From: a phage
Strand: one strand, 5' to 3'
Length of the DNA stretch: 64,000 bases
Sequence record: PZ386974.1
Shown here piece by piece: positions 4,814-47,078 of this stretch. The notes under the pieces are model-generated. The model ran no database searches. It saw nothing but the letters and a program-made list of their open reading frames with translations, and was not told where the DNA came from. Positions within the stretch are counted from its first letter, which is position 1. Every line of letters begins with the position of its first letter. A program made the position numbers and the translations under genes.

Positions 4814-7525
4814 TCAAAAATCGAACATATCGAACAGAGATGCTTTCTTCTCGTAATCGAGTTTCGCTGCTGATGTGAATCCTTCAAGTGGTTTAATAAA
4901 TGTCTTCTCAAGGAGAACAGTGTAGTCCATCCAATGAAGTACGTCGTCTTTAATTAAATCTGTGATTTCAGTACCAGAAGGCCATGCGATACATTTATCA
5001 CCGAATGGGTTTCCTTCACGTAAAGGCAGAACATATACTTTTTCACCTTCTACAACTTGCGGCGCATCGATATTACCTTTGATAGCCCGGTTATACGTCA
5101 GAATTCCACGAATATGGAACGGGCATTTGGGACCAGGGAATCCACCGACGTCATATTTAGCAATGTTATTCGCAGAAGATACCGACGCGATGCTAATATA
5201 ATTCAATTGACGGAATTCTTTTTCAAACTCTTTAAAATATTCTTGTAATGATTCTTCACCTTCTTGAAGCATACGACGAATACATTCCTTAAGAGCTTTC
5301 TGTACTGCTTTAGGGGTCGAAGATTTCTGAGTCTCTAGACCCATGATTTTGAGTTTAGGCTCAGCGTATCTGGTTCCTTCCATATCCCACACGTTTAATG
5401 CATAACGTTTCTTACCAGTCCAAAATCCGCCAATACCTTTAGAACCAAGCGGAGGCCCAGCGATAGCTTCTCGGTCCATGAACATTAAGTGTTGTTTATT
5501 GTTCATGTATTCACACATTTCACGGAAACCTCTATCAATAGCAGGTTCCATACGTTCACGTGCAAACTTATCTAAGAAGTCTACCCAATGGTTGGTATCA
5601 CGGAATTTAGATTCACCAACCTTATCGATAATTTTATCAGCAGATACGTAAATAGAGTCTGTATCACCATAAAGAACGAAAGCTTCACCTTCTGTACCAC
5701 AAACTTCATTCAGATATTCATTAACTTTACGTTCAATCCACTGTAAAGCCATTTGCCCGAATGTTGTGATTGCAGTAGCATTACGCAAATCATAATAACG
5801 GAACCAAACGTTGCCAAGTGCACCATAAAGTGAGTTGATGAGCAATTTACGGTTAATTTGTGCAGTCATACCTGCAACTTCAGTACGTTGAGCTCTAAAC
5901 AACATTTCGTTAAGAGATTTAGCAGACAACTTTTTAATCTTTTCTTTAATCTCATCACTGAAGTCGAAACGATAATCAACATCTAATGGTTCGTCAACAG
6001 AAAGATTAGGATTATGCAATGCCTCTTTAATTATTTCACCATTGCGTTGAGCCGCAAGCATATAACCTTTGTGTTCTTTACGTTGATTAAAGACTTTAGT
6101 GATTTCAGTTGGAACAACACCGTCACGGTCTTTATAATACATCATGCCGTTAGGAGAACAACTGTACACATCAGAAGGACGTTCAGCAACAGCGTTAATA
6201 TAATCATGCAATGGAGCTACTTTAAACGTTCCTGCTATTGTTTCTGGGCTAATATTCACTTGGCGAATAATACTTGGATACAGAGATGTGAGGTCGAAGC
6301 TCATCACATATTTGTATCGATTTGGAATAGGTTCCTTAACAAAAGCGCCAGGATAAGGTTGAACCGGATGAGAACGACCTTGTGGAATCACCTTGTTCTG
6401 CTCTTTAAGGCTATTAAAAATAATAGCATCCCATGTTTTAATTGGGCTAAACACAGATTGAATCTGTATCTTAGCATAATAACCCATGTCCAAGCTCAAG
6501 TTAATGAACTGACGTTTACCATCAATTTGCAATACACGATACACGTCGATAATGTTATAAGAAATATATCGTTGGTGATTGCTTTCACGAAGCTTAGAAA
6601 TAGGGCCGTCATATTTCAGTTTACCAACGTTCAATTCAAATTCTGAAATGTAATCCAGAGAATACGACGGTTGATTGGTAAAAGAGAATTTTTTGTAAAG
6701 GTCAATGTAATCAAGAACAGAGATACCGAACAATGTAATGATTTCACGAGAACCATACATGTTTTCGATAACTTTAACACGAGTTTTACGATGTGGTGAT
6801 AAACGTTTCGCAGTAGATTCGCCAAAAATATTCTTGATTCGGTTATACACATATGGAATATCAAATGACTCAACGTTCCATCCAGTCAAAATGACAGGAG
6901 TTTTCTGTTGCCAGAAGTTGAGATATTCCATCAACAATTCTTTTTCATTATCGAACGGCATATAAATGATTTTATCGATAATTTCGGATGGAACTTCATC
7001 ACCACCTTGTTCTTGAAGCTTAGCCGCAATTTCGATAGACCATTCTTCCACATTACCGTATGGAGAATTCAAAAGGTCAAATACGTAGAACCTGTCGTCA
7101 ATTGAGTCATAATGGGTGATAGCATCAATCGGATGTTTTGCTTGTGACGGCTCAGGGAACCCGTCCGGAGATGTTACTTCGATGTCGAAGTTAGCCACAC
7201 GAATTTTTGTATGGTCGTATTTGATTTCATAGTTATAAGTGTCAGACAAATACGCCAATTTGAAATCGTCCATGCCAAGTGCTTCAAGTCCGATATCTTC
7301 CATGCGTTTAATCCATTGGGAGGCATCACGCATATTAGCGAACAACTTACGAGTACACGGCTTACCGTAGATATCGAAATATTTCGTAGCCTGACTTTCT
7401 GGACAATGAGCAAACAGTGATGGTTTATATTCTACTTCACGAGTACGTTCACGGCCATTAGAATCGATGTAACGTTCAAAAATTGAATCACCAATCTGTT
7501 CAACCGTTAAGTAAAATTCTTTCAT
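4814..7525 (-). CDS. 43: DNA polymerase (family B), T4 gp43
   Basis: 903 aa; N-terminus MKEFY...ERYID..G.ERTREVEY and YGDTDS motif; co-linear with T4 gp43. Confidence 0.95.
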   Translation of the reverse strand: MKEFYLTVEQIGDSIFERYIDSNGRERTREVEYKPSLFAHCPESQATKYFDIYGKPCTRKLFANMRDASQWIKRMEDIGLEALGMDDFKLAYLSDTYNYEIKYDHTKIRVANFDIEVTSPDGFPEPSQAKHPIDAITHYDSIDDRFYVFDLLNSPYGNVEEWSIEIAAKLQEQGGDEVPSEIIDKIIYMPFDNEKELLMEYLNFWQQKTPVILTGWNVESFDIPYVYNRIKNIFGESTAKRLSPHRKTRVKVIENMYGSREIITLFGISVLDYIDLYKKFSFTNQPSYSLDYISEFELNVGKLKYDGPISKLRESNHQRYISYNIIDVYRVLQIDGKRQFINLSLDMGYYAKIQIQSVFSPIKTWDAIIFNSLKEQNKVIPQGRSHPVQPYPGAFVKEPIPNRYKYVMSFDLTSLYPSIIRQVNISPETIAGTFKVAPLHDYINAVAERPSDVYSCSPNGMMYYKDRDGVVPTEITKVFNQRKEHKGYMLAAQRNGEIIKEALHNPNLSVDEPLDVDYRFDFSDEIKEKIKKLSAKSLNEMLFRAQRTEVAGMTAQINRKLLINSLYGALGNVWFRYYDLRNATAITTFGQMALQWIERKVNEYLNEVCGTEGEAFVLYGDTDSIYVSADKIIDKVGESKFRDTNHWVDFLDKFARERMEPAIDRGFREMCEYMNNKQHLMFMDREAIAGPPLGSKGIGGFWTGKKRYALNVWDMEGTRYAEPKLKIMGLETQKSSTPKAVQKALKECIRRMLQEGEESLQEYFKEFEKEFRQLNYISIASVSSANNIAKYDVGGFPGPKCPFHIRGILTYNRAIKGNIDAPQVVEGEKVYVLPLREGNPFGDKCIAWPSGTEITDLIKDDVLHWMDYTVLLEKTFIKPLEGFTSAAKLDYEKKASLFDMFDF

Positions 7526-23038: not shown

Positions 23039-23298
23039 TTAAAATATTCCCGCAGTTGATCAAATCCACCGATCGAAGTTCCATCAGGAGCAAACACCTG
23101 AGGCATCGTCAACCCAACATGTGTTTCACGTCCTAGTTTATTCAGAAGCTCGTCAATTTTTTCTTCATCAAATACACCTTTCTCTGGCATCACGTTAATG
23201 AATTCGAACGGCTGTTTCTTAACAGTCAGCAATCGTTTCGCATTATCACAATAAATGCATTTATGAATAGTAGAGTCATACCCGTACACTTTAAACAT
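23035..23298 (-). CDS. nrdC: glutaredoxin/thioredoxin NrdC
   Basis: MFKVYGYDSTIHKCIYCDNAKRLLTVKKQPFEFINVMPEKGVFDEEKIDELLNKLGR matches T4 NrdC; CxxC motif; start at MFKVYGYD. Confidence 0.85.
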   Translation of the reverse strand: MFKVYGYDSTIHKCIYCDNAKRLLTVKKQPFEFINVMPEKGVFDEEKIDELLNKLGRETHVGLTMPQVFAPDGTSIGGFDQLREYFK

Positions 23299-23704
23299 TA
23301 TTTTTCCTTTCATCAATTAAATATGCAATGCCAAATACAATACATGTAATAAAACCTGTGATACAGATAGAAACCAACAACACTGTACCAAAGAACCAAA
23401 TCAAGTTATCTTTAGTAGTTTGTTTGATATCCATCTCACGAATTTCTATAGCTATCGTATCACCTTTATTCAGAAGCGTATAAAACGATGGCGATACACG
23501 CCTGTCAAAAACTCGTCCTTGCTCATCTTTATAGACGGCAATAAATTCTAATTTAGAATATTTTCCTGTAGATTGACCTGAGATTAGCTCTACTACCTCC
23601 ACAGGAATTACTTTAGTTTCCATGTAAGTATTCTGGCTGTTCCAAATGAACGGGATGATGGCAAAAACTAAAGCTGCAATAAAACAACGAAGACTATATC
23701 TCAT
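23291..23704 (-). CDS. membrane protein (137 aa)
   Basis: N- and C-terminal hydrophobic helices. Confidence 0.5.
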   Translation of the reverse strand: MRYSLRCFIAALVFAIIPFIWNSQNTYMETKVIPVEVVELISGQSTGKYSKLEFIAVYKDEQGRVFDRRVSPSFYTLLNKGDTIAIEIREMDIKQTTKDNLIWFFGTVLLVSICITGFITCIVFGIAYLIDERKNNV

Positions 23705-24009
23705 TATAATGTTCTCTCAAATTTGTGGAAGCATTTACGGCATTTCAATTTCAAGTTATCACTGGTCCAGTTAACCAGTTGGACTTGGATAGTTCCACAT
23801 TCTGGGCATGGGTGTTTTGCTGCCGATTTGGCAGCATTTTCACGTCGTTCAACCATTTTCATTATTTCGTTCCATGCTGGAGGAACGAACTCTTCTTCAC
23901 CATGAATTTTATCTCGCTGAACAAATTCAATCTTTGAACTATCATCAATAAACTTAACTAAGCCATGATTAGTGCTCATATCAATATCCTCTAGAAGACG
24001 TAGGTTCAT
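23704..24009 (-). CDS. zinc-ribbon protein (101 aa)
   Basis: CPECG...CRKC Cys pairs. Confidence 0.5.
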   Translation of the reverse strand: MNLRLLEDIDMSTNHGLVKFIDDSSKIEFVQRDKIHGEEEFVPPAWNEIMKMVERRENAAKSAAKHPCPECGTIQVQLVNWTSDNLKLKCRKCFHKFERTL

Positions 24010-24956
24010 TATAACACCTCAATGGCATTTCGTAAACCATCCGCTTTCGCGTTCAGAGCTTTTAACGATTTAGTCTGTTCTTTAATCTGGGCTTCGACTT
24101 CTTTAAGACGAGATTTGAGATATTCACGTTCTTCGCTCAAGTTGTCAACTTTTTCTACTTTAGGTTCTTTAATAGTCTTAAGTTTATACTCGTTAGGGTT
24201 CTTCAACTTAATTTGAATGCGAGAACTGAATAACATCGAACCGTTATCTTCGGTTTCGTCATACATTTCTACTACGTCCATGATTCTTAACATCATGCGA
24301 AGTTTATAAGACAGCGAACGAACGGTTTTATTGTGCTTCTTAATTTCTTCAGCTTTCATGGTGCCGAGATTACGTGAGTAGTAATAAGGAACCTGGATAT
24401 CAATTGACAATGATGCGTTACCATTACCTGTTGGTTTGAATACTGCAGTAACCCAATCTTTAACATGAACTTTATTTGTACGATCATCGCCACCAGTGAA
24501 TAATTTACGAGAATGTTTAAAAAGCATATTCACTTGGTTATTGAATTCACAAGCAAATTTATCAGCAAATTTAGTTTCAGGAATGGTAGATAACCAATCA
24601 GCCAAATGAGTCTTTTTAACATCATTAACAATAGTGAATTCAACCAAATCGGTTTTAGATGTCACAGATTTAATAAAGCTCGGCTTCATAAAGTTTTTAA
24701 TGTTATCGCGAGCTACAGTAGAAGATAATAAACGAGAACGTTTGAACCATTGAAGCAGCGTCCCTAATGAATGAGAATATGCATTTTGAGTATCTTTACA
24801 GATATGATTTTCTTGGCCTGTGTATGTAAGAAAATCACGAAGAATACTATAAACCACACCTTTATGTGGAACATCAGTCCAAGCACCAGTAGCACGTTGA
24901 GCGTGAGCGTTAGCGATAAGACCGGCAAAGTATTCAATGTAATGTGAACGTGTCAT
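24009..24956 (-). CDS. hypothetical protein with C-terminal coiled coil (315 aa)
   Basis: First of three tandem ~320-aa ORFs, each with its own promoter element. Confidence 0.6.
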   Translation of the reverse strand: MTRSHYIEYFAGLIANAHAQRATGAWTDVPHKGVVYSILRDFLTYTGQENHICKDTQNAYSHSLGTLLQWFKRSRLLSSTVARDNIKNFMKPSFIKSVTSKTDLVEFTIVNDVKKTHLADWLSTIPETKFADKFACEFNNQVNMLFKHSRKLFTGGDDRTNKVHVKDWVTAVFKPTGNGNASLSIDIQVPYYYSRNLGTMKAEEIKKHNKTVRSLSYKLRMMLRIMDVVEMYDETEDNGSMLFSSRIQIKLKNPNEYKLKTIKEPKVEKVDNLSEEREYLKSRLKEVEAQIKEQTKSLKALNAKADGLRNAIEVL

Positions 24957-24984
24957 AATATTTTCCTCTCGTTAAGATAAATTC

Positions 24985-25014
24985 ATTATACTCCAACCAT
25001 CCTTGGTTGTAAAC
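24985..25014 (-). promoter_or_regulatory. early-type promoter GTTTAC-N18-TATAAT with spacer hairpin CAACCA-AGGA-TGGTTG
   Basis: Consensus hexamers and 18-bp spacing on the minus strand; copies at 26005..26034 and 46546..46575. Confidence 0.55.
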
Positions 25015-25018
25015 TGAT

Positions 25019-25978
25019 TTATGATTTTAACGCATTCATTGCGTTAAAAAGTTTAGAATACTGCAACTGGAGATTCGTTACAACACTTTGAGCATCACGA
25101 AGCTTAGCTTGTGCTTTGTCAAGTTCAACAGACAGTTGGTCCATAGTGGCCTTGATTTGATTGTAATGGTAATCTTCGACCGGAAGAAGGTCATTAGAAA
25201 CATTTAGTTTTACTGCAGACAGTTTGCACACATTTGGCAAACCTTTAAACATTGATTTACCCGAAGTAGAATAAGCACTTAGGACTTCGGCCTGTTCAAT
25301 TGGGGTCCCAGTAAGCGATGCTTCAAACGTTGCATTTTCCTTTTTAAGATTTTGATAATATTCGGAGTCTTTGTGCCACCATGGCGCAGGAACCTTTTTA
25401 CCAATAGATACACGAGCCTGGATAGCGATATGGCCCTTATTCTTGATAGGGTTGATAATATTAAGCTCACGAGAATAAATTGCTTTAATCTGGTGGATAT
25501 TATCACCTAACACTTCCAATGCTTGGTGGAATACACGAGCAACGTTATCATTCTTAGGTTTATACGTAAGAGTGAACTCATTCTCACTGATAACCATGAT
25601 TTCCAACTTATCGTAAGTATATTTCAAATGTTTCATGTTAATTGCTTGAGGACGAATACGAGAAGCAATGGCCATCAGATTGTTAAGGTTATTCCGGAAC
25701 TGCTTAGCGAAATATTGACCTTCACCGCCAATACAAAAATTACGAAGTTTCTGTTTGGCCAATAAACGGCTGAACTCACCATTTTTAATGAACTCTTTAA
25801 CGGGTGTGTTAGTAACGCATTCAAATTGGGTAAACATACGAGAAGTAATCCCATAATATGAACAGATTTCCTCAATCTCTTCAGGAGTCTTTACAGGCAT
25901 ACGGATAGGATTAGGTCCTGGAGTATATGCGTTCGAGGTAAATTCTTTGATAAGTTCTCTACGTGTAATAAAAGCCAT
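25019..25978 (-). CDS. hypothetical protein with C-terminal coiled coil (319 aa)
   Basis: Second tandem ~320-aa ORF. Confidence 0.6.
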   Translation of the reverse strand: MAFITRRELIKEFTSNAYTPGPNPIRMPVKTPEEIEEICSYYGITSRMFTQFECVTNTPVKEFIKNGEFSRLLAKQKLRNFCIGGEGQYFAKQFRNNLNNLMAIASRIRPQAINMKHLKYTYDKLEIMVISENEFTLTYKPKNDNVARVFHQALEVLGDNIHQIKAIYSRELNIINPIKNKGHIAIQARVSIGKKVPAPWWHKDSEYYQNLKKENATFEASLTGTPIEQAEVLSAYSTSGKSMFKGLPNVCKLSAVKLNVSNDLLPVEDYHYNQIKATMDQLSVELDKAQAKLRDAQSVVTNLQLQYSKLFNAMNALKS

Positions 25979-26004
25979 TTTATATTCCTCATGTTGAAAA
26001 ATTT

Positions 26005-26034
26005 ATTATACTCCAACCATCCTTGGTTGTACAT
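26005..26034 (-). promoter_or_regulatory. early-type promoter (ATGTAC-N18-TATAAT) with the same spacer hairpin
   Basis: Near-identical 30-bp copy of the 24985..25014 element. Confidence 0.5.
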
Positions 26035-27029
26035 CATTCCTTAAGAAGTTTTACTACTTGAATAAGATTAGCTCGTTCTGTTTTATTTTTACCGTTTAAG
26101 CCTGCTAATCGTGAGATTTCATCGTCAGTCTGTTGAATAGTTACATTAAGTTCGTTAATCAAAGCTTCAAAGTATTTGATTTGCTCAGCATGTTTTGATT
26201 CAAATTTCTGAACCGGAATAACGTCTTGGTTCAGTTCATCAATAAGGTCTTTAAGAGCATCTTCTTGGTTGATATCATATTCAACTTCTTTTATTTCTTC
26301 AACTAGCTCGTCTTTATATCTAACGTCTTTTAGTCCTGGTGCTGGTCCTGAAATCTCTTCTTTAAGAGTACAAACATACCCAATACGGTATCCAGTGCCG
26401 TCTCGCTTGATATCAACTTCGTCGATAAATCCACAATGTTTGAGACCAGAGCCGATTAGGTCAAAATATCCTTGACGACGTCCTTCAAACGTTACACGAA
26501 CTACTAAGACAGTTTTGCCTGCAATCTTTTGAAGCTCACATTTATAAAAGTCAGTTGAACCTGAATAACGTGGATGAGTTTTAAAGTTCATCTGACGATC
26601 TAGGCCCATTTGTAAACGTGCTGTTACGGCCATAAAACGTGTTTGGTTCTCGTTAAGATGAGCAACAATCCATTTCAAAGGCATTTTACACTGTTCACGA
26701 CCGAACAAATCAGTACGTCCTAGATTACGCAGGATGTTGTTAGAGTTAATCATCGACAGAACGTTAAGTTTATTCAGCGCGCTGAAGATTCCATCAGCCA
26801 TTGATTTTCCGTAGCCTTTACACGCTTTAATAAGCGCTCGCGGTAGATTAGTATAGATTTCAGACGGCATATGAAAATCAAATTTACTAACCAGTAATTG
26901 ATGAACTTGGATAGCAATTCGTTCATAATTAAGCGCTCTGCGATCATTATGGTCTTTAAACCACACTTTAATCTGTGAAGCACATAAACCGTTAATTTCA
27001 TGTTTTATCGCATCAGATGTAATGCTCAT
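26034..27029 (-). CDS. hypothetical protein with C-terminal coiled coil (331 aa)
   Basis: Third tandem ~320-aa ORF. Confidence 0.6.
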   Translation of the reverse strand: MSITSDAIKHEINGLCASQIKVWFKDHNDRRALNYERIAIQVHQLLVSKFDFHMPSEIYTNLPRALIKACKGYGKSMADGIFSALNKLNVLSMINSNNILRNLGRTDLFGREQCKMPLKWIVAHLNENQTRFMAVTARLQMGLDRQMNFKTHPRYSGSTDFYKCELQKIAGKTVLVVRVTFEGRRQGYFDLIGSGLKHCGFIDEVDIKRDGTGYRIGYVCTLKEEISGPAPGLKDVRYKDELVEEIKEVEYDINQEDALKDLIDELNQDVIPVQKFESKHAEQIKYFEALINELNVTIQQTDDEISRLAGLNGKNKTERANLIQVVKLLKE

Positions 27030-27091
27030 AACTATTTCCTCAGATTGAATTGGAACTCAAAACCATTATAACCCGTCCTTGGGTAAAGCGT

Positions 27092-27619: not shown

Positions 27620-27646
27620 GTTTTACCTCCAGTAGTTGATAGGTCT

Positions 27647-27675
27647 ATAATAACATAACCATAGACCTTGTAAAC
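27647..27675 (-). promoter_or_regulatory. early-type promoter GTTTAC-N17-TATTAT with inverted repeat GGTCTAT/ATAGACC
   Basis: Read on minus strand upstream of ORF 27092..27619. Confidence 0.5.
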
Positions 27676-27677
27676 AA

Positions 27678-27965
27678 CTAAAAGAAACTTTTTTCGGTAT
27701 TTTTTCCACTGAACCAAACCGACTTCGGGATTTTTTGTAATTTTTCAGATTTAAGTTTCTCTTCCTGTTCTTTCTTATATACACCCTTGTCGTACTGGAG
27801 CATCTCTATGGCATTCTTTTGCAAACGATCTAAGGTAATTAAGGCTTTAGTTTTTCCTTTCAAGGAAGAGTCCTGGCGAACCTCCTCGCTATATTGCATC
27901 GTAGAACTAACCATACGATGAGCATAGAGTTCGACTGCGGCTTTAATTTTTTGCATAAAATCCAT
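27678..27965 (-). CDS. hypothetical protein (95 aa)
   Basis: ORF. Confidence 0.5.
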   Translation of the reverse strand: MDFMQKIKAAVELYAHRMVSSTMQYSEEVRQDSSLKGKTKALITLDRLQKNAIEMLQYDKGVYKKEQEEKLKSEKLQKIPKSVWFSGKNTEKSFF

Positions 27966-28102: not shown

Positions 28103-29104
28103 TTATTTCAGTAAAGTTACTTCGGAGATTTCCTCCCAACCATCTTTATCAGTTGAAATAAAATCTGCTACATAAAGAGCCGTACGTAATGATACATTGC
28201 GAAGACGAGATACGTTAGCCTTCATCCAGGACAATGCTTTGTACGTTTCAGCATCAGTCAGACCACGTTTCTGCATCATGTCAGTAGATAATATTACGTC
28301 TTCAACTCGAACCATAATCTCTTCATTAGAGTGTACTCCAAGGTCGAGATACACTGAACGAGATACTAAAGCTTGAAGGTGTGGGGCAAGTTTCGAACCA
28401 CGTTCTAACTCTTTATCGATATCAACGTTTGTAATGAAAACGATAGTACCTTCAAACTCAAATTCTTTATCAATACCCTTATCATCAAGATAAGATGACG
28501 CAGTGCTCCAACAAACTTTGCGTTTATCTCCGGTATCTAATGCTGCTTTAAGAAGGTTCAAGATATCCATATCAGAGAATACATCAACATCGTCGATTAA
28601 GAGAACGCTGTCTGCATCACGGTTGAGCCAAAGTTGTTCGTAAAGGCCGATACCAGAGATTTTACCATTAATGCTTTTGTATTTGATGAAACCATTATCA
28701 TTAGCATTATTAAGTGCTTTATCCAGAGAATACGTCTTACCAATACCGGCTGCACCTGAAATGATGAGTGAACGAATTTTGCCATCGATAATGCCATTCG
28801 TCATCATGTTCATTACTTTAAAGCGTTTGTTGATACGAGTTTTCATATCTTCAGTGCTTTCAACAACTGCAACTGGTGATGTCTCAACTCCTTCCATTAC
28901 GATGTCTGATTTGAAGACCCATACTCCACGTTCAGAACCATCAATCATAACGAAAATTTTACCATCACCTAAGTGGGAACATTCAGGATTAAGCTTTGCT
29001 GGGAACCATGTCTTTGTGGCGACATAAGAACCAGAGATTTCGTTATTACGATAGATACCTTTTTTGATTTGAACGTTGAACATTTTATTCTCCAATTTAC
29101 TCAT
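28103..29104 (-). CDS. P-loop NTPase / AAA-like ATPase (333 aa)
   Basis: Walker A ISGAAGIGKT and Walker B-like VLLIDDVD. Confidence 0.6.
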   Translation of the reverse strand: MSKLENKMFNVQIKKGIYRNNEISGSYVATKTWFPAKLNPECSHLGDGKIFVMIDGSERGVWVFKSDIVMEGVETSPVAVVESTEDMKTRINKRFKVMNMMTNGIIDGKIRSLIISGAAGIGKTYSLDKALNNANDNGFIKYKSINGKISGIGLYEQLWLNRDADSVLLIDDVDVFSDMDILNLLKAALDTGDKRKVCWSTASSYLDDKGIDKEFEFEGTIVFITNVDIDKELERGSKLAPHLQALVSRSVYLDLGVHSNEEIMVRVEDVILSTDMMQKRGLTDAETYKALSWMKANVSRLRNVSLRTALYVADFISTDKDGWEEISEVTLLK

Positions 29105-29121
29105 TTCGTTTCGATAGGTCT

Positions 29122-29150
29122 ATAATAACATATCCTAAAAGCATGTACAC
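29122..29150 (-). promoter_or_regulatory. early-type promoter (GTGTAC-N17-TATTAT)
   Basis: Hexamers and spacing on the minus strand upstream of the ATPase gene. Confidence 0.45.
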
Positions 29151-29201
29151 TACTTTTTAAAAATATTTTAACCCCCTAAAGGGACCCGAAGGTCCCCACA
29201 T

Positions 29202-29514: not shown

Positions 29515-30504
29515 TTATTTATAGTAAGAATTATGATTTTCGAGATAGACTTGCTCAAGGAAATCATCCCAGAAACTCATATCTACTTTTTGTTGCATAC
29601 CGTTCTTAGCGGCTTGTTCTGATGCTTGTTCAACTTGGTCAACGATATCTTCTAGGAATTCTTGTACAGTTTTAAACGTATGTTTACCAAGCTTAACATC
29701 GAGAATAAATGGAGCATCCTGAAGCGGGTAAACCAGGTCACCGGTTTTGTAAATTTCCAATAATTGAAGTCCACCACGACATGCATGACTCAATGCTTTC
29801 CAGTCAATACCTTCGTTGGCTTCCGCCTTACGAGCACGTTCACCATAGTTCTCTTCCAGTTTAACCAGGATGGCATTGAACTCTTTATTGGTTAACGTGT
29901 CTTGGAATTTACGGTCCAACAGATTATAGAATGTTTGCTTACCTGTTTTCTCGTTTTCGGTTTCAACCCACGAAGCAAATTCACCTACAGGCAGAACATT
30001 CTTCATATGTGATAAACGAATTACTGCACCATTATCAAAGTATTGTCCCCATTCATTAGAACGTTTAAGGGCTTGTCGAAGAACAGCCAGTCGAGAACCC
30101 TTGACACCGTATTTAGAAGCTTGCTTACGGACATACCCTAAATAAGATTTCATGTTAGTGGTATAGAAACGAGACCTGTTATCTTGAATATACTTCCATA
30201 CATCAGGCAAATCAGATTTAACTACTAGACTTTGTGGAGTGTGAAGCATATCTAATGCGACGGTTTCACCATCTGCAGCTAGTTTAAAGAAATATTTGAG
30301 ACTATATAACTCATGGTCCACGTCGTCTTTTGTGTTCTTAGAAGATGTGTTATTCGTGTTCTTGCTCATATGTTCTTTAACGTTACCGGTCAAGATATCA
30401 CGAGCATGAGGGACATAAATTTCTTTAAAATCAACGTCAGATTCTGGGGTAGACGTTCCATAAAGGTGGCTACCAAAGTAGCCTTTCATAATTGTTTTCA
30501 TCAT
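29515..30504 (-). CDS. Pol-beta-superfamily nucleotidyltransferase-domain protein (329 aa)
   Basis: N-terminal GS-x9-SDVD motif (YFGSHLYGTSTPESDVDFKEIYV). Confidence 0.55.
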   Translation of the reverse strand: MMKTIMKGYFGSHLYGTSTPESDVDFKEIYVPHARDILTGNVKEHMSKNTNNTSSKNTKDDVDHELYSLKYFFKLAADGETVALDMLHTPQSLVVKSDLPDVWKYIQDNRSRFYTTNMKSYLGYVRKQASKYGVKGSRLAVLRQALKRSNEWGQYFDNGAVIRLSHMKNVLPVGEFASWVETENEKTGKQTFYNLLDRKFQDTLTNKEFNAILVKLEENYGERARKAEANEGIDWKALSHACRGGLQLLEIYKTGDLVYPLQDAPFILDVKLGKHTFKTVQEFLEDIVDQVEQASEQAAKNGMQQKVDMSFWDDFLEQVYLENHNSYYK

Positions 30505-36697: not shown

Positions 36698-37006
36698 TCA
36701 ATTAGAAAATAAATTTATCCAAGTTTTTTCTTTAATCAAAAATGGGTCGGAATTAAACGCCATTAAACTTTGAGTGATTAATCCCTTAAATGGCCCATCA
36801 ATAAATTCCATTTTGAAATGTGGAATACTAGTCATTAACCGTGCATTAGGAGCAGTACAAAAAACCTGCTGCCCTGCGAACGGACCTTTAGTCAAACGGT
36901 ATCGTTTAGGTTTAAAATGGTAAATCTCGTAATTTTCTACAAGGGCCCTTTTATTGCATACTGGGCTGTTATAACAATGCTCAAAAACTTCAATAGTGGT
37001 CATCAT
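36698..37006 (-). CDS. hypothetical protein (start likely internal, ~102 aa)
   Basis: ORF; the track start overlaps the upstream gene by 67 nt. Confidence 0.45.
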   Translation of the reverse strand: MMTTIEVFEHCYNSPVCNKRALVENYEIYHFKPKRYRLTKGPFAGQQVFCTAPNARLMTSIPHFKMEFIDGPFKGLITQSLMAFNSDPFLIKEKTWINLFSN

Positions 37007-37542
37007 TGCATTCCAATCACAAAAAATTGAGGACGAGCAATACCACCGATGCAATATTTGCTTTTGCAACAGTGTTGGACTGTTTTAATATGGATGTCGT
37101 AAATCTTATCCATATCAGGAGCTTTAATAGGCTCGTCAATTATGTACAGAATACGAGAAAGCGTTAATCCACGGAATTTATGTCCTTCATTACCAATAAA
37201 ACTACGGACAGAATCAGTAAATAAACGGAATCGAATATCATCGCTAGAATATCGAGAAAATTCTTTTTCAATGTTGCCGGCAGAAATTTTAGCGTAAGCT
37301 GAAGTATTAGAAAGAACAATAACTGTTCCGCCATCATACAACCAATTAGCAGCAAAATTAGTCACAGCAATTGATTTACCGGATTGTCTGCCGCCGTCTA
37401 AACGAAGTGTACAGTACTGCTTGAGTACGTCTTCAAATGGTGGGGCATAACCGTTCTTACAAATTTCTTCTACTCTAGCATCAGAATGGTGTGTAAAAGC
37501 ATTCATCAGGGATAGATAAGGTCCGGTTAAAAATGTTCTCAT
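37003..37542 (-). CDS. P-loop-containing protein (179 aa)
   Basis: GGRQSGKS Walker-A-like motif. Confidence 0.5.
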   Translation of the reverse strand: MRTFLTGPYLSLMNAFTHHSDARVEEICKNGYAPPFEDVLKQYCTLRLDGGRQSGKSIAVTNFAANWLYDGGTVIVLSNTSAYAKISAGNIEKEFSRYSSDDIRFRLFTDSVRSFIGNEGHKFRGLTLSRILYIIDEPIKAPDMDKIYDIHIKTVQHCCKSKYCIGGIARPQFFVIGMQ

Positions 37543-37715
37543 TTAGTTTCTCTTAAGGTTGGGGCCGTTCCGTGGCACATGTTAGGTCCTTCGACTCGCT
37601 ATGTAAACCCATTACCGCACTTGGGCTCGACCTTATTACAGGTTGGAAAAGGTACATCACTCAGAGGACTCGACGTTCATGAGGAGAGGTTGCGTTTCCC
37701 TTTATTAGGCAAGAA

Positions 37716-38045
37716 TTATACTCTAGGCTTTTGAGCTTGTTTGGTATTGGATTCCCATGCAGCTTTGGTAATTTTGTTAGCGGCATAACCAAAGGCATTA
37801 GATAGAACACCTTTAGAGTTGAATACATCCAATCCAATAAGTACACCGGCTGTGTTAAATTTAGGAGCAAAGTACGCATTAGTTTTAGAAAGAGCTTTTT
37901 TCAATTCAGGGTCTTGAACCAAACCATCAAAAACGCCTTTACTATTTACTTTATATGTTACTTTGGGATTTTTACCTTCTTCGATAGCAGCTTTCTGTTC
38001 CGCAGATAATGTAACTTCAGTGATAAACTCTTGATACGTTTTCAT
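37716..38045 (-). CDS. internal protein (IP) candidate with capsid-targeting sequence
   Basis: N-terminus MKTYQEFITE matches the T4 IP capsid-targeting consensus MKTYQEFIAE. Confidence 0.65.
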   Translation of the reverse strand: MKTYQEFITEVTLSAEQKAAIEEGKNPKVTYKVNSKGVFDGLVQDPELKKALSKTNAYFAPKFNTAGVLIGLDVFNSKGVLSNAFGYAANKITKAAWESNTKQAQKPRV

Positions 38046-46304: not shown

Positions 46305-46574
46305 TTTGTTTTCCTCTTGATTTGATAGGACTACTATAACATAAACTTACTTAGATGTAAATTATTTCAACGTCACCTTTAGCTGCTTTATAACCTTCAG
46401 CCCAAGATACAACAGAGTTTTTATCTGAGGATTCAAATTCAGGCATTGGACTTTCACCAATATTCACACAGTATGTTTCTTCATTTTCATCGAACCAAAT
46501 AATTAAAGTAGTCATTTTGTTTACTCCTCTGTAGTTGATAAGTCTATAGTATCACCATCCTTGGTGCTTGTACA

Positions 46575-47078
46575 TCATTTATTTTTAATTTTGCAAATTT
46601 TTTCTGCTTCAGCAATTGCAGCGTCAATGATGCTTTGTGCAATTTTATTACTAGTTGACCTGGCAATCACACTAAGAACAATTTCTTTTTCTTCACCACC
46701 CCAACCCCAAGTCCTTTGTTCGTGGGTACCTTTAACTACAGCTGAAACTTCAACAGAACGTCCACCATCAGAAGTTTTAACATCTACAACCCAATCACCA
46801 TCTTTCTCTTCTACCCTTGATTTATCCCAAGAAATACTAATATATGATTCGCTATCAATAGAAGTCGCCGGGTTTTTCTCTACCGTAAGACCTTCACTTT
46901 CCAGCCATTCAATAGTATTTGCGCATAAATCTGAAGAACACCTAATCGGAAACCGGCAAGATTTTTCACCTTTAGCTGCAGCGTTATACATCTTTTCTAA
47001 AATACGCTTTTGCACGTTTTTAAAAATAGTTTCAGCAGATTCTTCAGATTTTTTATTCAGTTCAGTGTAAAGACTCAT
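46575..47078 (-). CDS. hypothetical protein (167 aa)
   Basis: ORF. Confidence 0.5.
   Translation of the reverse strand: MSLYTELNKKSEESAETIFKNVQKRILEKMYNAAAKGEKSCRFPIRCSSDLCANTIEWLESEGLTVEKNPATSIDSESYISISWDKSRVEEKDGDWVVDVKTSDGGRSVEVSAVVKGTHEQRTWGWGGEEKEIVLSVIARSTSNKIAQSIIDAAIAEAEKICKIKNK

Follow-up and report, generated by a model that had tools for sequence, protein, structure and literature searches.

A variable nrdC array in a T4-like phage: alleles of nrdC.3, nrdC.5 and nrdC.6 and their repeated hairpin promoters

Why should a phage keep three consecutive genes of almost the same size in a variable part of its genome, two of them behind promoter elements that are near copies of each other? 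The question is raised by a stretch of phage DNA of 64,000 nucleotides (nt) (sequence record PZ386974.1; the whole stretch is called the window here), which is 97.7% identical to genomes of Mosigvirus, with 97-98% identity to these RB69-like coliphages in the region concerned. Three open reading frames (ORFs) of 315, 319 and 331 amino acids (aa), here named genes A, B and C, had been picked out by an earlier sequence-only reading, and both their coordinates, as confirmed by the ORF list, and their placement in the variable nrdC-rI interval were correct. This location is the gp49-rI hyperplastic region.

In this report, we identify A, B and C, from their similarity and gene order, as the Mosigvirus alleles of T4 nrdC.3, nrdC.5 and nrdC.6. 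The explanation that we favour, and that we hold to be fairly probable, is that these alleles form a fast-evolving array of early accessory genes, probably directed against host defence, which is shuffled at promoter-early stem-loops (PeSLs). The locus is largely explained by the T4 genes nrdC.3, nrdC.5 and nrdC.6, by PeSL cassettes and by the anti-defence role of the region. The sequence-only reading had proposed recombination, and on this point it stands; it had missed the identity with the T4 genes, the PeSL precedent and the phenotype of nrdC.5 against the Dsr1 defence.

Identity of the three genes

Gene A matches T4 NrdC.3 with 56% identity over 315 aa (BLASTP, E 4e-118) at the syntenic position, and is assigned to phrog_1435 and, by precomputed annotation, to Pfam PF26897, which is found on all of its homologs. 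Gene C, also in syntenic position, is 30% identical to T4 NrdC.6 (BLASTP, E 2e-18) and 33-34% identical to T4-type NrdC.6 in tblastn searches (E 1e-27); it is assigned to phrog_2257 and PF26899 (again precomputed), the latter being found on its homologs as well. The identity of gene B to T4 NrdC.5 is 26% (BLASTP, E 3e-11), with lengths of 319 and 340 aa. On the Pfam model DUF7235, B scores 412 bits, where the cut-off is 30, over model positions 1-307, and the full-length scores of B, of T4 NrdC.5 (421 bits) and of the homologs in Gaprivervirus VR20 and phage CUA3 all lie between 399 and 421 bits.

Gene B thus has in common with T4 nrdC.5 a full-length match to one Pfam model, a comparable length, synteny, early expression and a C-terminal helix. 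They differ in that T4 nrdC.5 lacks a promoter of its own and directly follows nrdC.6, whereas B has its own early promoter, and in that B is identical to the T4 protein at 24% of its N-terminal part and at 45% of its last 55 aa; for C, the corresponding values against T4 are 27% and 60%. A is the ortholog of T4 nrdC.3 and C the allele of nrdC.6, and T4 nrdC.3 and nrdC.4 have the same kind of hairpin promoter as that described below for the window; however, the gene order and the placement of the promoters in T4 are unlike those of the window.

The flanking genes nrdG, 49, nrdC, nrdC.8, nrdC.10 and nrdC.11 are 78-89% identical to T4, and A, B and C lie far below these flanks. The NrdC.8-like gene, which comes next after C when the window is compared with the T4 reference, is itself 84% identical to T4 NrdC.8. 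The content of the array also varies with the lineage: T4 carries nrdC.3, nrdC.4, nrdC.5 and nrdC.6, VR20 carries nrdC.4, nrdC.5 and nrdC.6, and the present phage carries nrdC.3, nrdC.5 and nrdC.6, with nrdC.4 absent. Because of this high divergence relative to the flanks and the polymorphism in presence and absence, A, B and C bear the signature of an arms race.

All three families are limited to the enteric Tevenvirinae, with 656, 516 and 742 phage records. When 1.8 billion representatives were scanned in full by HMMER with the profile of C, nothing beyond NrdC.6-type proteins came up, and three word-indexed homolog searches and one locus scan of viral contigs returned close relatives alone. 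NrdC.8 was considered as an anchor for finding the locus in distant T4-like phages and was rejected, as its occurrence does not extend beyond the same enteric phages.

It should be mentioned that nrdC.6 of the T4 reference itself (NC_000866, 9997-10100, minus strand; 275 aa) looks frameshifted close to its 3' end. The terminal segment of about 30 aa that is conserved in the 295-aa relatives (DDEIFRLSGLSSKAKSEREKLIKIVDLLKS) is encoded in T4 in another frame, just upstream of nrdC.5.

The repeated promoter and the presence or absence of gene B

The sequence-only reading had described near-identical 30-nt elements before the first two genes. This description is accurate: the element at 24985-25014 has a second copy, with 2 mismatches, at 26005-26034 and no further one in the 64 kilobases, whereas shuffles predict no copies at all. 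The repeat in fact extends to 36 nt, 34 of which are identical; on the coding strand it reads GTTTACAACCAAGGATGGTTGGAGTATAAT in one copy and ATGTACAACCAAGGATGGTTGGAGTATAAT in the other. The two copies rank first among the sigma-70-like sites of the region, TTTACA-17-TATAAT (11/12) and TGTACA-17-TATAAT (10/12), and the spacer holds a hairpin, an inverted repeat of 6 base pairs (bp) around an AGGA loop, which is present in the minimum free energy folds. Downstream of the promoter in copy 1 there follow a Shine-Dalgarno (SD) sequence, GAGG, and the start codon.

The same reading had set each of the three genes behind such a promoter with a hairpin. This holds for A and B and is overstated for C, because the promoter of gene C is different: it is of the MotA-box type, and in the near-identical genome SA79RD it is annotated as a T4 middle-type promoter. 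Its hairpin is degenerate (ACCC-AAGGAC-GGGT, 27071-27084) and has only the core CCAAGGAYGG in common with the others. At the downstream edge of the array, marked by the early-type promoter within the end of gene A, the start codon of the nrdC.2-like gene overlaps the stop codon of A. The positions of these features are collected in Table 1.

Table 1. Genes, promoters and AGGA-loop hairpins of the array, with hairpin stems found elsewhere
Feature	Position in window	Strand	Sequence or remark
Gene A	24009-24956	minus	315 aa; ORF list
Gene B	25019-25978	minus	319 aa; ORF list
Gene C	26034-27029	minus	331 aa; ORF list
Repeat copy 1	24976-25011	minus	within B-A intergenic cassette 24957-25018
Copy 1, -35 box	25008-25013	minus	TTTACA
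Copy 1, -10 box	24985-24990	minus	TATAAT
Copy 1, hairpin	24994-25009	minus	CAACCA-AGGA-TGGTTG, in spacer between -35 and -10
Repeat copy 2	25996-26031	minus	within C-B intergenic cassette 25979-26033
Copy 2, -35 box	26028-26033	minus	TGTACA, abutting stop codon of C
Copy 2, -10 box	26005-26010	minus	TATAAT
Copy 2, hairpin	26014-26029	minus	
Gene C promoter	27065-27089	minus	MotA-box-like GCTTTA 27084-27089, N13, -10 TATAAT 27065-27070
Early-type promoter of nrdC.2-like gene	24008-24036	minus	TTTACG-17-TATAAT, in last codons of gene A
Hairpin stem near 46560	~46540-46575	minus	CACCA-AGGA-TGGTG
Hairpin stem, T4 nrdC.3			AGCCA/TGGCT
Hairpin stem, T4 nrdC.4			CCACA/TGTGG
Hairpin stem, VR20 nrdC.4			TCCA/TGGA
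Hairpin stem, CUA3 nrdC.4			CATCCA/TGGATG
Hairpin stem, T4 nrdC.7; VR20 and CUA3 nrdC.6			TTATACCA/TGGTATAA

If gene B were deleted between the two copies of the repeat, window positions 24700-25011 would be joined to 26032-26340, and this predicted junction was searched against phage genomes. It is found as one colinear piece in 20 Mosigvirus records, at 94-96% identity, and partially in one further record, whereas in most other Mosigvirus-like records its two parts match at separate places. One B-less junction, that of WFL6982, was compared at the level of single bases. In this phage, the homologs of C and A are adjacent, and the junction is an exact chimera: its left part is the C-B junction of the window, its right part is the B-A junction, and between them lies the shared core TACAACCAAGGATGGTTGGAGTATAAT. 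The crossover of this event falls within a 29-nt identical core that includes the hairpin. The B-less junctions and the chimera together indicate that gene B and one copy of the promoter are a 1020-bp cassette that was gained or lost at the repeat.

Another kind of exchange is seen in nrdC.3. Between two Tequatrovirus contigs, identity is 100% across nrdC.5 and most of nrdC.4, falls to 43-78% inside nrdC.3 and recovers to 90-98% in nrdC.2; in other words, the whole nrdC.3 allele has been swapped via its conserved flanks. The suggestion of modular acquisition or recombination, made from the repeat alone, is therefore borne out both by the presence and absence of gene B, where the breakpoint falls within the repeat, and by the swapped nrdC.3 allele. 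In the papers accessible to us, we found no account of such a precise gain or loss of gene B in nature. The locus is a clean natural example of the gain or loss of a single gene in the PeSL manner, with the crossover placed in the 29-nt core, and the roughly 20 natural phages without B, among them WFL6982 and p000v, could serve directly for tests.

The layout of promoter and hairpin in A and B matches the PeSL cassette of T4-type phages. According to the published descriptions, PeSL stem-loops occur mainly in the spacer from -35 to -10 (Arbiol et al. 2010, PMC2839356), and PeSLs recur in hyperplastic regions, where they mediate insertions and deletions (PMC2839356; Comeau et al. 2014, PMC4122927). 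Termination or attenuation of transcription from upstream and the formation of excised mini-circles also count among the traits of the class. The window repeats likewise comprise an early sigma-70-like promoter, a stem-loop between -35 and -10, an SD sequence and a start codon; they are intergenic among accessory ORFs of a hyperplastic region that diverge far above the flanks; and they coincide with the breakpoints of insertions and deletions (indels) between close relatives. They differ from the PeSLs, however, in that the loop is an invariant AGGA and the stems covary, and in that the short stem (5-6 bp) is not rich in G/C tracts and has no T-run after it. These last features make terminator activity doubtful for the window hairpin, whereas the PeSL stem-loops of RB49 are reported to have worked as terminators (PMC2839356). 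A further difference is that the 2014 paper puts the stem-loops of T4 and PST just upstream of the promoter (PMC4122927).

Covariation of the spacer hairpin

At the homologous positions in other phages, the hairpin has different stems and the same AGGA loop. Over ten distinct hairpin sequences, one of which (the site near 46560) was found by a filter that required pairing, 88% of the cells of the alignment are paired, whereas shuffles pair 64%. Covariation scores 0.60 compared with 0.13, and none of 500 shuffles reaches 0.60. Slid registers of the alignment give only 18-42% pairing, and one pair of the stem occurs as AU, CG, GC and UA. Because the sequence of the stem varies while the pairing persists, a palindromic protein-binding site is unlikely, and because the covariation is real, the function of the hairpin is open to probing with compensatory mutants. 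In the text of the PeSL papers that was accessible to us, we found no description of such a covarying class of AGGA-loop hairpins.

Since a third copy lies near 46560 in the window, the AGGA-loop hairpin is not exclusive to the genes nrdC.3 to nrdC.6. This copy stands in a promoter-like context (TGTACA...TACTAT), upstream of an ORF of 54 aa (46351-46515). An intrinsic terminator was considered as the role of the hairpin and rejected: the stem lacks a T-run behind it, and the site received no call as an intrinsic terminator, so that the hairpin does not qualify as a canonical terminator. In most of the copies, GGAG comes directly after the stem, and the hairpin may have a role in RNA processing. 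A scan of viral contigs with the pattern CAAGGATG-N(1-9)-TATAAT was dropped, the 14-base pattern being too unspecific.

Relationship among the proteins and their probable role

The sequence-only reading had noted no obvious mutual similarity among the three proteins. This is true at the level of BLASTP, which finds none among A, B and C, and shallow family profiles (effective number of sequences, Neff, about 1.5) gave no signal across families either. A signal appeared only with deeper family alignments, which comprise all collected alleles and add those of T4, VR20 and CUA3. With these, hhalign joins NrdC.3 to NrdC.4 at a probability of 97-98% (E 3.5e-11, over 213 non-coil columns), NrdC.4 to NrdC.5 at 91% (E 1.3e-6), and the combined NrdC.3 and NrdC.4 to NrdC.5 at 89-95% (E 2e-6), and in the reversed-template controls all P values are at least 0.027. 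On these profiles, NrdC.3, NrdC.4 and NrdC.5 are classed as distant paralogs, and A and B are likewise, because the profiles join both of them via NrdC.4, a gene that this phage lacks. At the profile level, the apparent lack of similarity therefore does not hold. We found no earlier description of this paralogy in the papers accessible to us.

Gene C is linked to the other families by a shared architecture and a C-terminal motif, and its homology to them is not proven; the order of the secondary-structure elements, the end motif and the conserved C-terminus are indirect signs of a relationship. All four families (NrdC.3, NrdC.4, NrdC.5 and NrdC.6) close with the motif, L-x-x-[AV]-[ILMV]-x-x-L-K. 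All of them, C included, are built alike: the N-terminal domain is helical, a small beta/alpha/beta module and a variable linker come next, and an amphipathic helix makes up the C-terminus. The coiled-coil-like C-termini, a further point of the sequence-only reading, are supported by a crude heptad scan, which locates heptad-patterned ends at residues 266-315 of A, 267-319 of B and 281-311 of C; out of 200 shuffles each, 4, 0 and 6, respectively, attain the observed maxima. In all three proteins, the heptads lie in a long proline-free helix; heptad C-termini are present in all members of the families, and AlphaFold2 predicts long terminal helices at residues 274-314 of A and 281-330 of C. It should also be mentioned that the linker before this helix is a hot spot of indels and substitutions among alleles of B and C that are otherwise 87-98% identical (aa ~222-262 of B, at 25200-25330, and aa ~226-250 of C, at 26280-26350).

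The AlphaFold2 model of A consists of an N-terminal helical region, a beta/alpha/beta segment and the C-terminal helix. As a query for fold searches it was too poor, with a predicted local distance difference test (pLDDT) of 50, for which reason its fold matches mean little; its matches in BFVD were weak apart from an NrdC.3 homolog. The model of C reaches a pLDDT of 66 overall (predicted template modelling score 0.55) and of 65-87 in its N-terminal helical domain of about 150 aa. Its predicted helices at 3-26, 35-50, 56-71, 77-87 and 129-141 are followed by a beta-hairpin (162-179), a helix (185-199), a disordered linker and the terminal helix, an order that nearly mirrors that of the A model.

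In a Foldseek search of BFVD with the C model, the NrdC.6 family came first, and further matches were uncharacterised proteins of 300-335 aa from T4-like phages of Enterobacter, Klebsiella and Acinetobacter (probability 1.0, 12-14% identity). The match from the Acinetobacter phage Acj9 is equal in length (325 aa) to Acj9 p122, whose gene (36836-37813) stands between gp49 and nrdC.10, the same interval as in the window. In phage Ac42, the same gp49/nrdH-nrdC.10 interval holds two genes in tandem (5054-7058), one of 318 aa and one of 348 aa. The p122 protein and both Ac42 proteins end in coiled-coil-like sequence, and none of these Acinetobacter phage proteins has detectable sequence similarity to the four families. 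Profile, PDB and fold searches gave no known fold or housekeeping homolog for A, B or C, so that the unrelated folds with clear housekeeping homologs, named beforehand as the result that would speak against the sequence-only reading, were not obtained; NCBIfam and PDB sequence searches gave nothing useful.

T4 nrdC.5 is the sole gene of the array with a known role. Supplied in trans, it restores the plating of a deletion mutant on cells with the Dsr1 sirtuin defence (PMC9391042; Srikant et al. 2022). Nearby in the region, gp49.2 inhibits OLD (PMC13096335) and nrdC.1 inhibits Septu (bioRxiv 10.1101/2025.11.20.689424). The three genes are part of a tandem array of fast-diverging, non-essential genes, with early- or middle-type promoters of their own. 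A crossover within the repeat has, in nature, inserted or deleted gene B, and the homologous flanks let whole alleles be swapped. These points, the orthology and the paralogy of A and B are what the sequences show; the functions that follow are inferred. In the explanation that we favour, A, B and C would be counter-defence factors made early in infection. B may neutralise a Dsr1-type sirtuin NADase in the manner of T4 NrdC.5, which it would probably do by binding it directly; the choice of target would lie with the divergent N-terminal domain, whereas oligomerisation or a shared contact would fall to the conserved helix at the C-terminus. A and C may act likewise on other targets or variants, and both become candidate inhibitors if nrdC.3, nrdC.4 and nrdC.5 are indeed paralogous and built alike. 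DSAD1, a phage inhibitor of DSR2 that binds and blocks its SIR2 NADase, offers no more than a possible functional analogy; profile searches of PDB chains at E of 1 or less returned no anti-defence protein, including DSAD1, whose presence among those chains is unconfirmed.

Could A, B and C instead be unrelated ORFans that happen to be alike in size, with coiled coils acquired independently and no common type of function? Their membership in different PHROGs and Pfam families would agree with this, as would the failure of BLASTP to connect them, the lack of a significant hhalign link for C and the similar composition that coiled coils have in general. We consider it quite improbable, as the alignments of NrdC.3 with NrdC.4 and of NrdC.4 with NrdC.5, at E values of 1e-6 to 1e-11, are made outside the coils and lie far past the reversed controls, the predicted elements of A follow one another as do those of C, the terminal motif is found in all four families and the same pattern recurs at the syntenic site of Acinetobacter phages. 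It is also unlikely, in our opinion, that the three proteins are early factors of host takeover or regulation, acting on transcription, the nucleoid or metabolism, and that the effect of T4 nrdC.5 on Dsr1 is indirect. That effect is known without a mechanism, early and middle promoters are those of many takeover genes, and no similarity to DSAD1 or to any solved anti-defence protein was found; yet the genes are dispensable, being present or absent among close relatives, their allelic divergence is extreme relative to the flanks, their neighbours are proven anti-defence genes, and the whole pattern is as expected of arms-race genes.

A third alternative concerns the hairpin and deserves more weight than these two, even if we incline against it: the hairpin might be mainly an RNA element of read-through transcripts, such as an attenuator, a stabiliser of 3' ends or a processing site (with the adjacent GGAG as a RegB target, for example), and recombination might be a by-product of sequence identity. 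A covarying stem with an invariant loop indicates selection on structure and not on sequence identity, the hairpin directly follows the upstream stop codon, and the GGAG after most stems and the terminator activity reported for the RB49 stem-loops would fit such a role. The missing T-run and terminator call, together with a stem of just 5-6 bp of ordinary stability (z -0.5 to -1.5), do not, and as the crossover of the B event falls somewhere in an identical core that contains the hairpin, the latter may also have a role in recombination.

Several of our own results also weigh against the explanation by a shuffled anti-defence array. The only experimentally known role within the array is that of T4 nrdC.5, and because B is just 26% identical to this sole tested protein, its specificity may differ or be lost. 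C is joined to the other families by hhalign with local P values of 0.003-0.006 and, in global mode, a probability of 25%, and the NrdC.3, NrdC.4 and NrdC.5 families are absent from the Foldseek matches of the C model. Since the A model is poor, the likeness of the folds is one of secondary-structure order and not of three-dimensional superposition. The event in gene B can be read either as a gain or as a loss. Finally, the hairpin is thermodynamically ordinary, and the filter by which the site near 46560 was found required pairing.

A broader speculation, which we regard as rather doubtful, is that NrdC.3, NrdC.4, NrdC.5 and NrdC.6 and the coiled-coil-tailed genes of the same size at the syntenic site in T4-like phages of Acinetobacter, Klebsiella and Enterobacter might constitute one ancient, hyper-divergent superfamily of early counter-defence proteins. 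Such proteins would carry a diversifying N-terminal recognition domain on a conserved oligomerisation helix, with each paralog tuned to a different NADase or immune sensor, and the AGGA-loop hairpin would travel along with them as a signal that is dedicated to recombination or RNA processing and selected for its structure.

Some observations on the neighbouring genes may be added. An NrdC.7-like predicted membrane protein, 41% identical to T4 NrdC.7, is encoded at 23291-23704 (minus strand); its gene directly adjoins nrdC here, whereas in T4 it lies upstream of nrdC.6, a further rearrangement in the region. Two genes on the minus strand encode an NrdC.10-like AAA/STAND-like NTPase (28103-29104; weak AAA_22 and nSTAND3 matches) and an NrdC.11-like nucleotidyltransferase of the RlaP type (29515-30504), and, unlike A, B and C, both are well conserved in comparison with T4 (78% identity). 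Early promoters are repeated in a second pair as well, PeSL-like in appearance, upstream of the NrdC.8-like and NrdC.10-like genes, at 27638-27694 and 29113-29169 (74% identical over 57 nt); in the former copy, the inverted repeat AGGTCTAT/ATAGACCT overlaps the -10 box.

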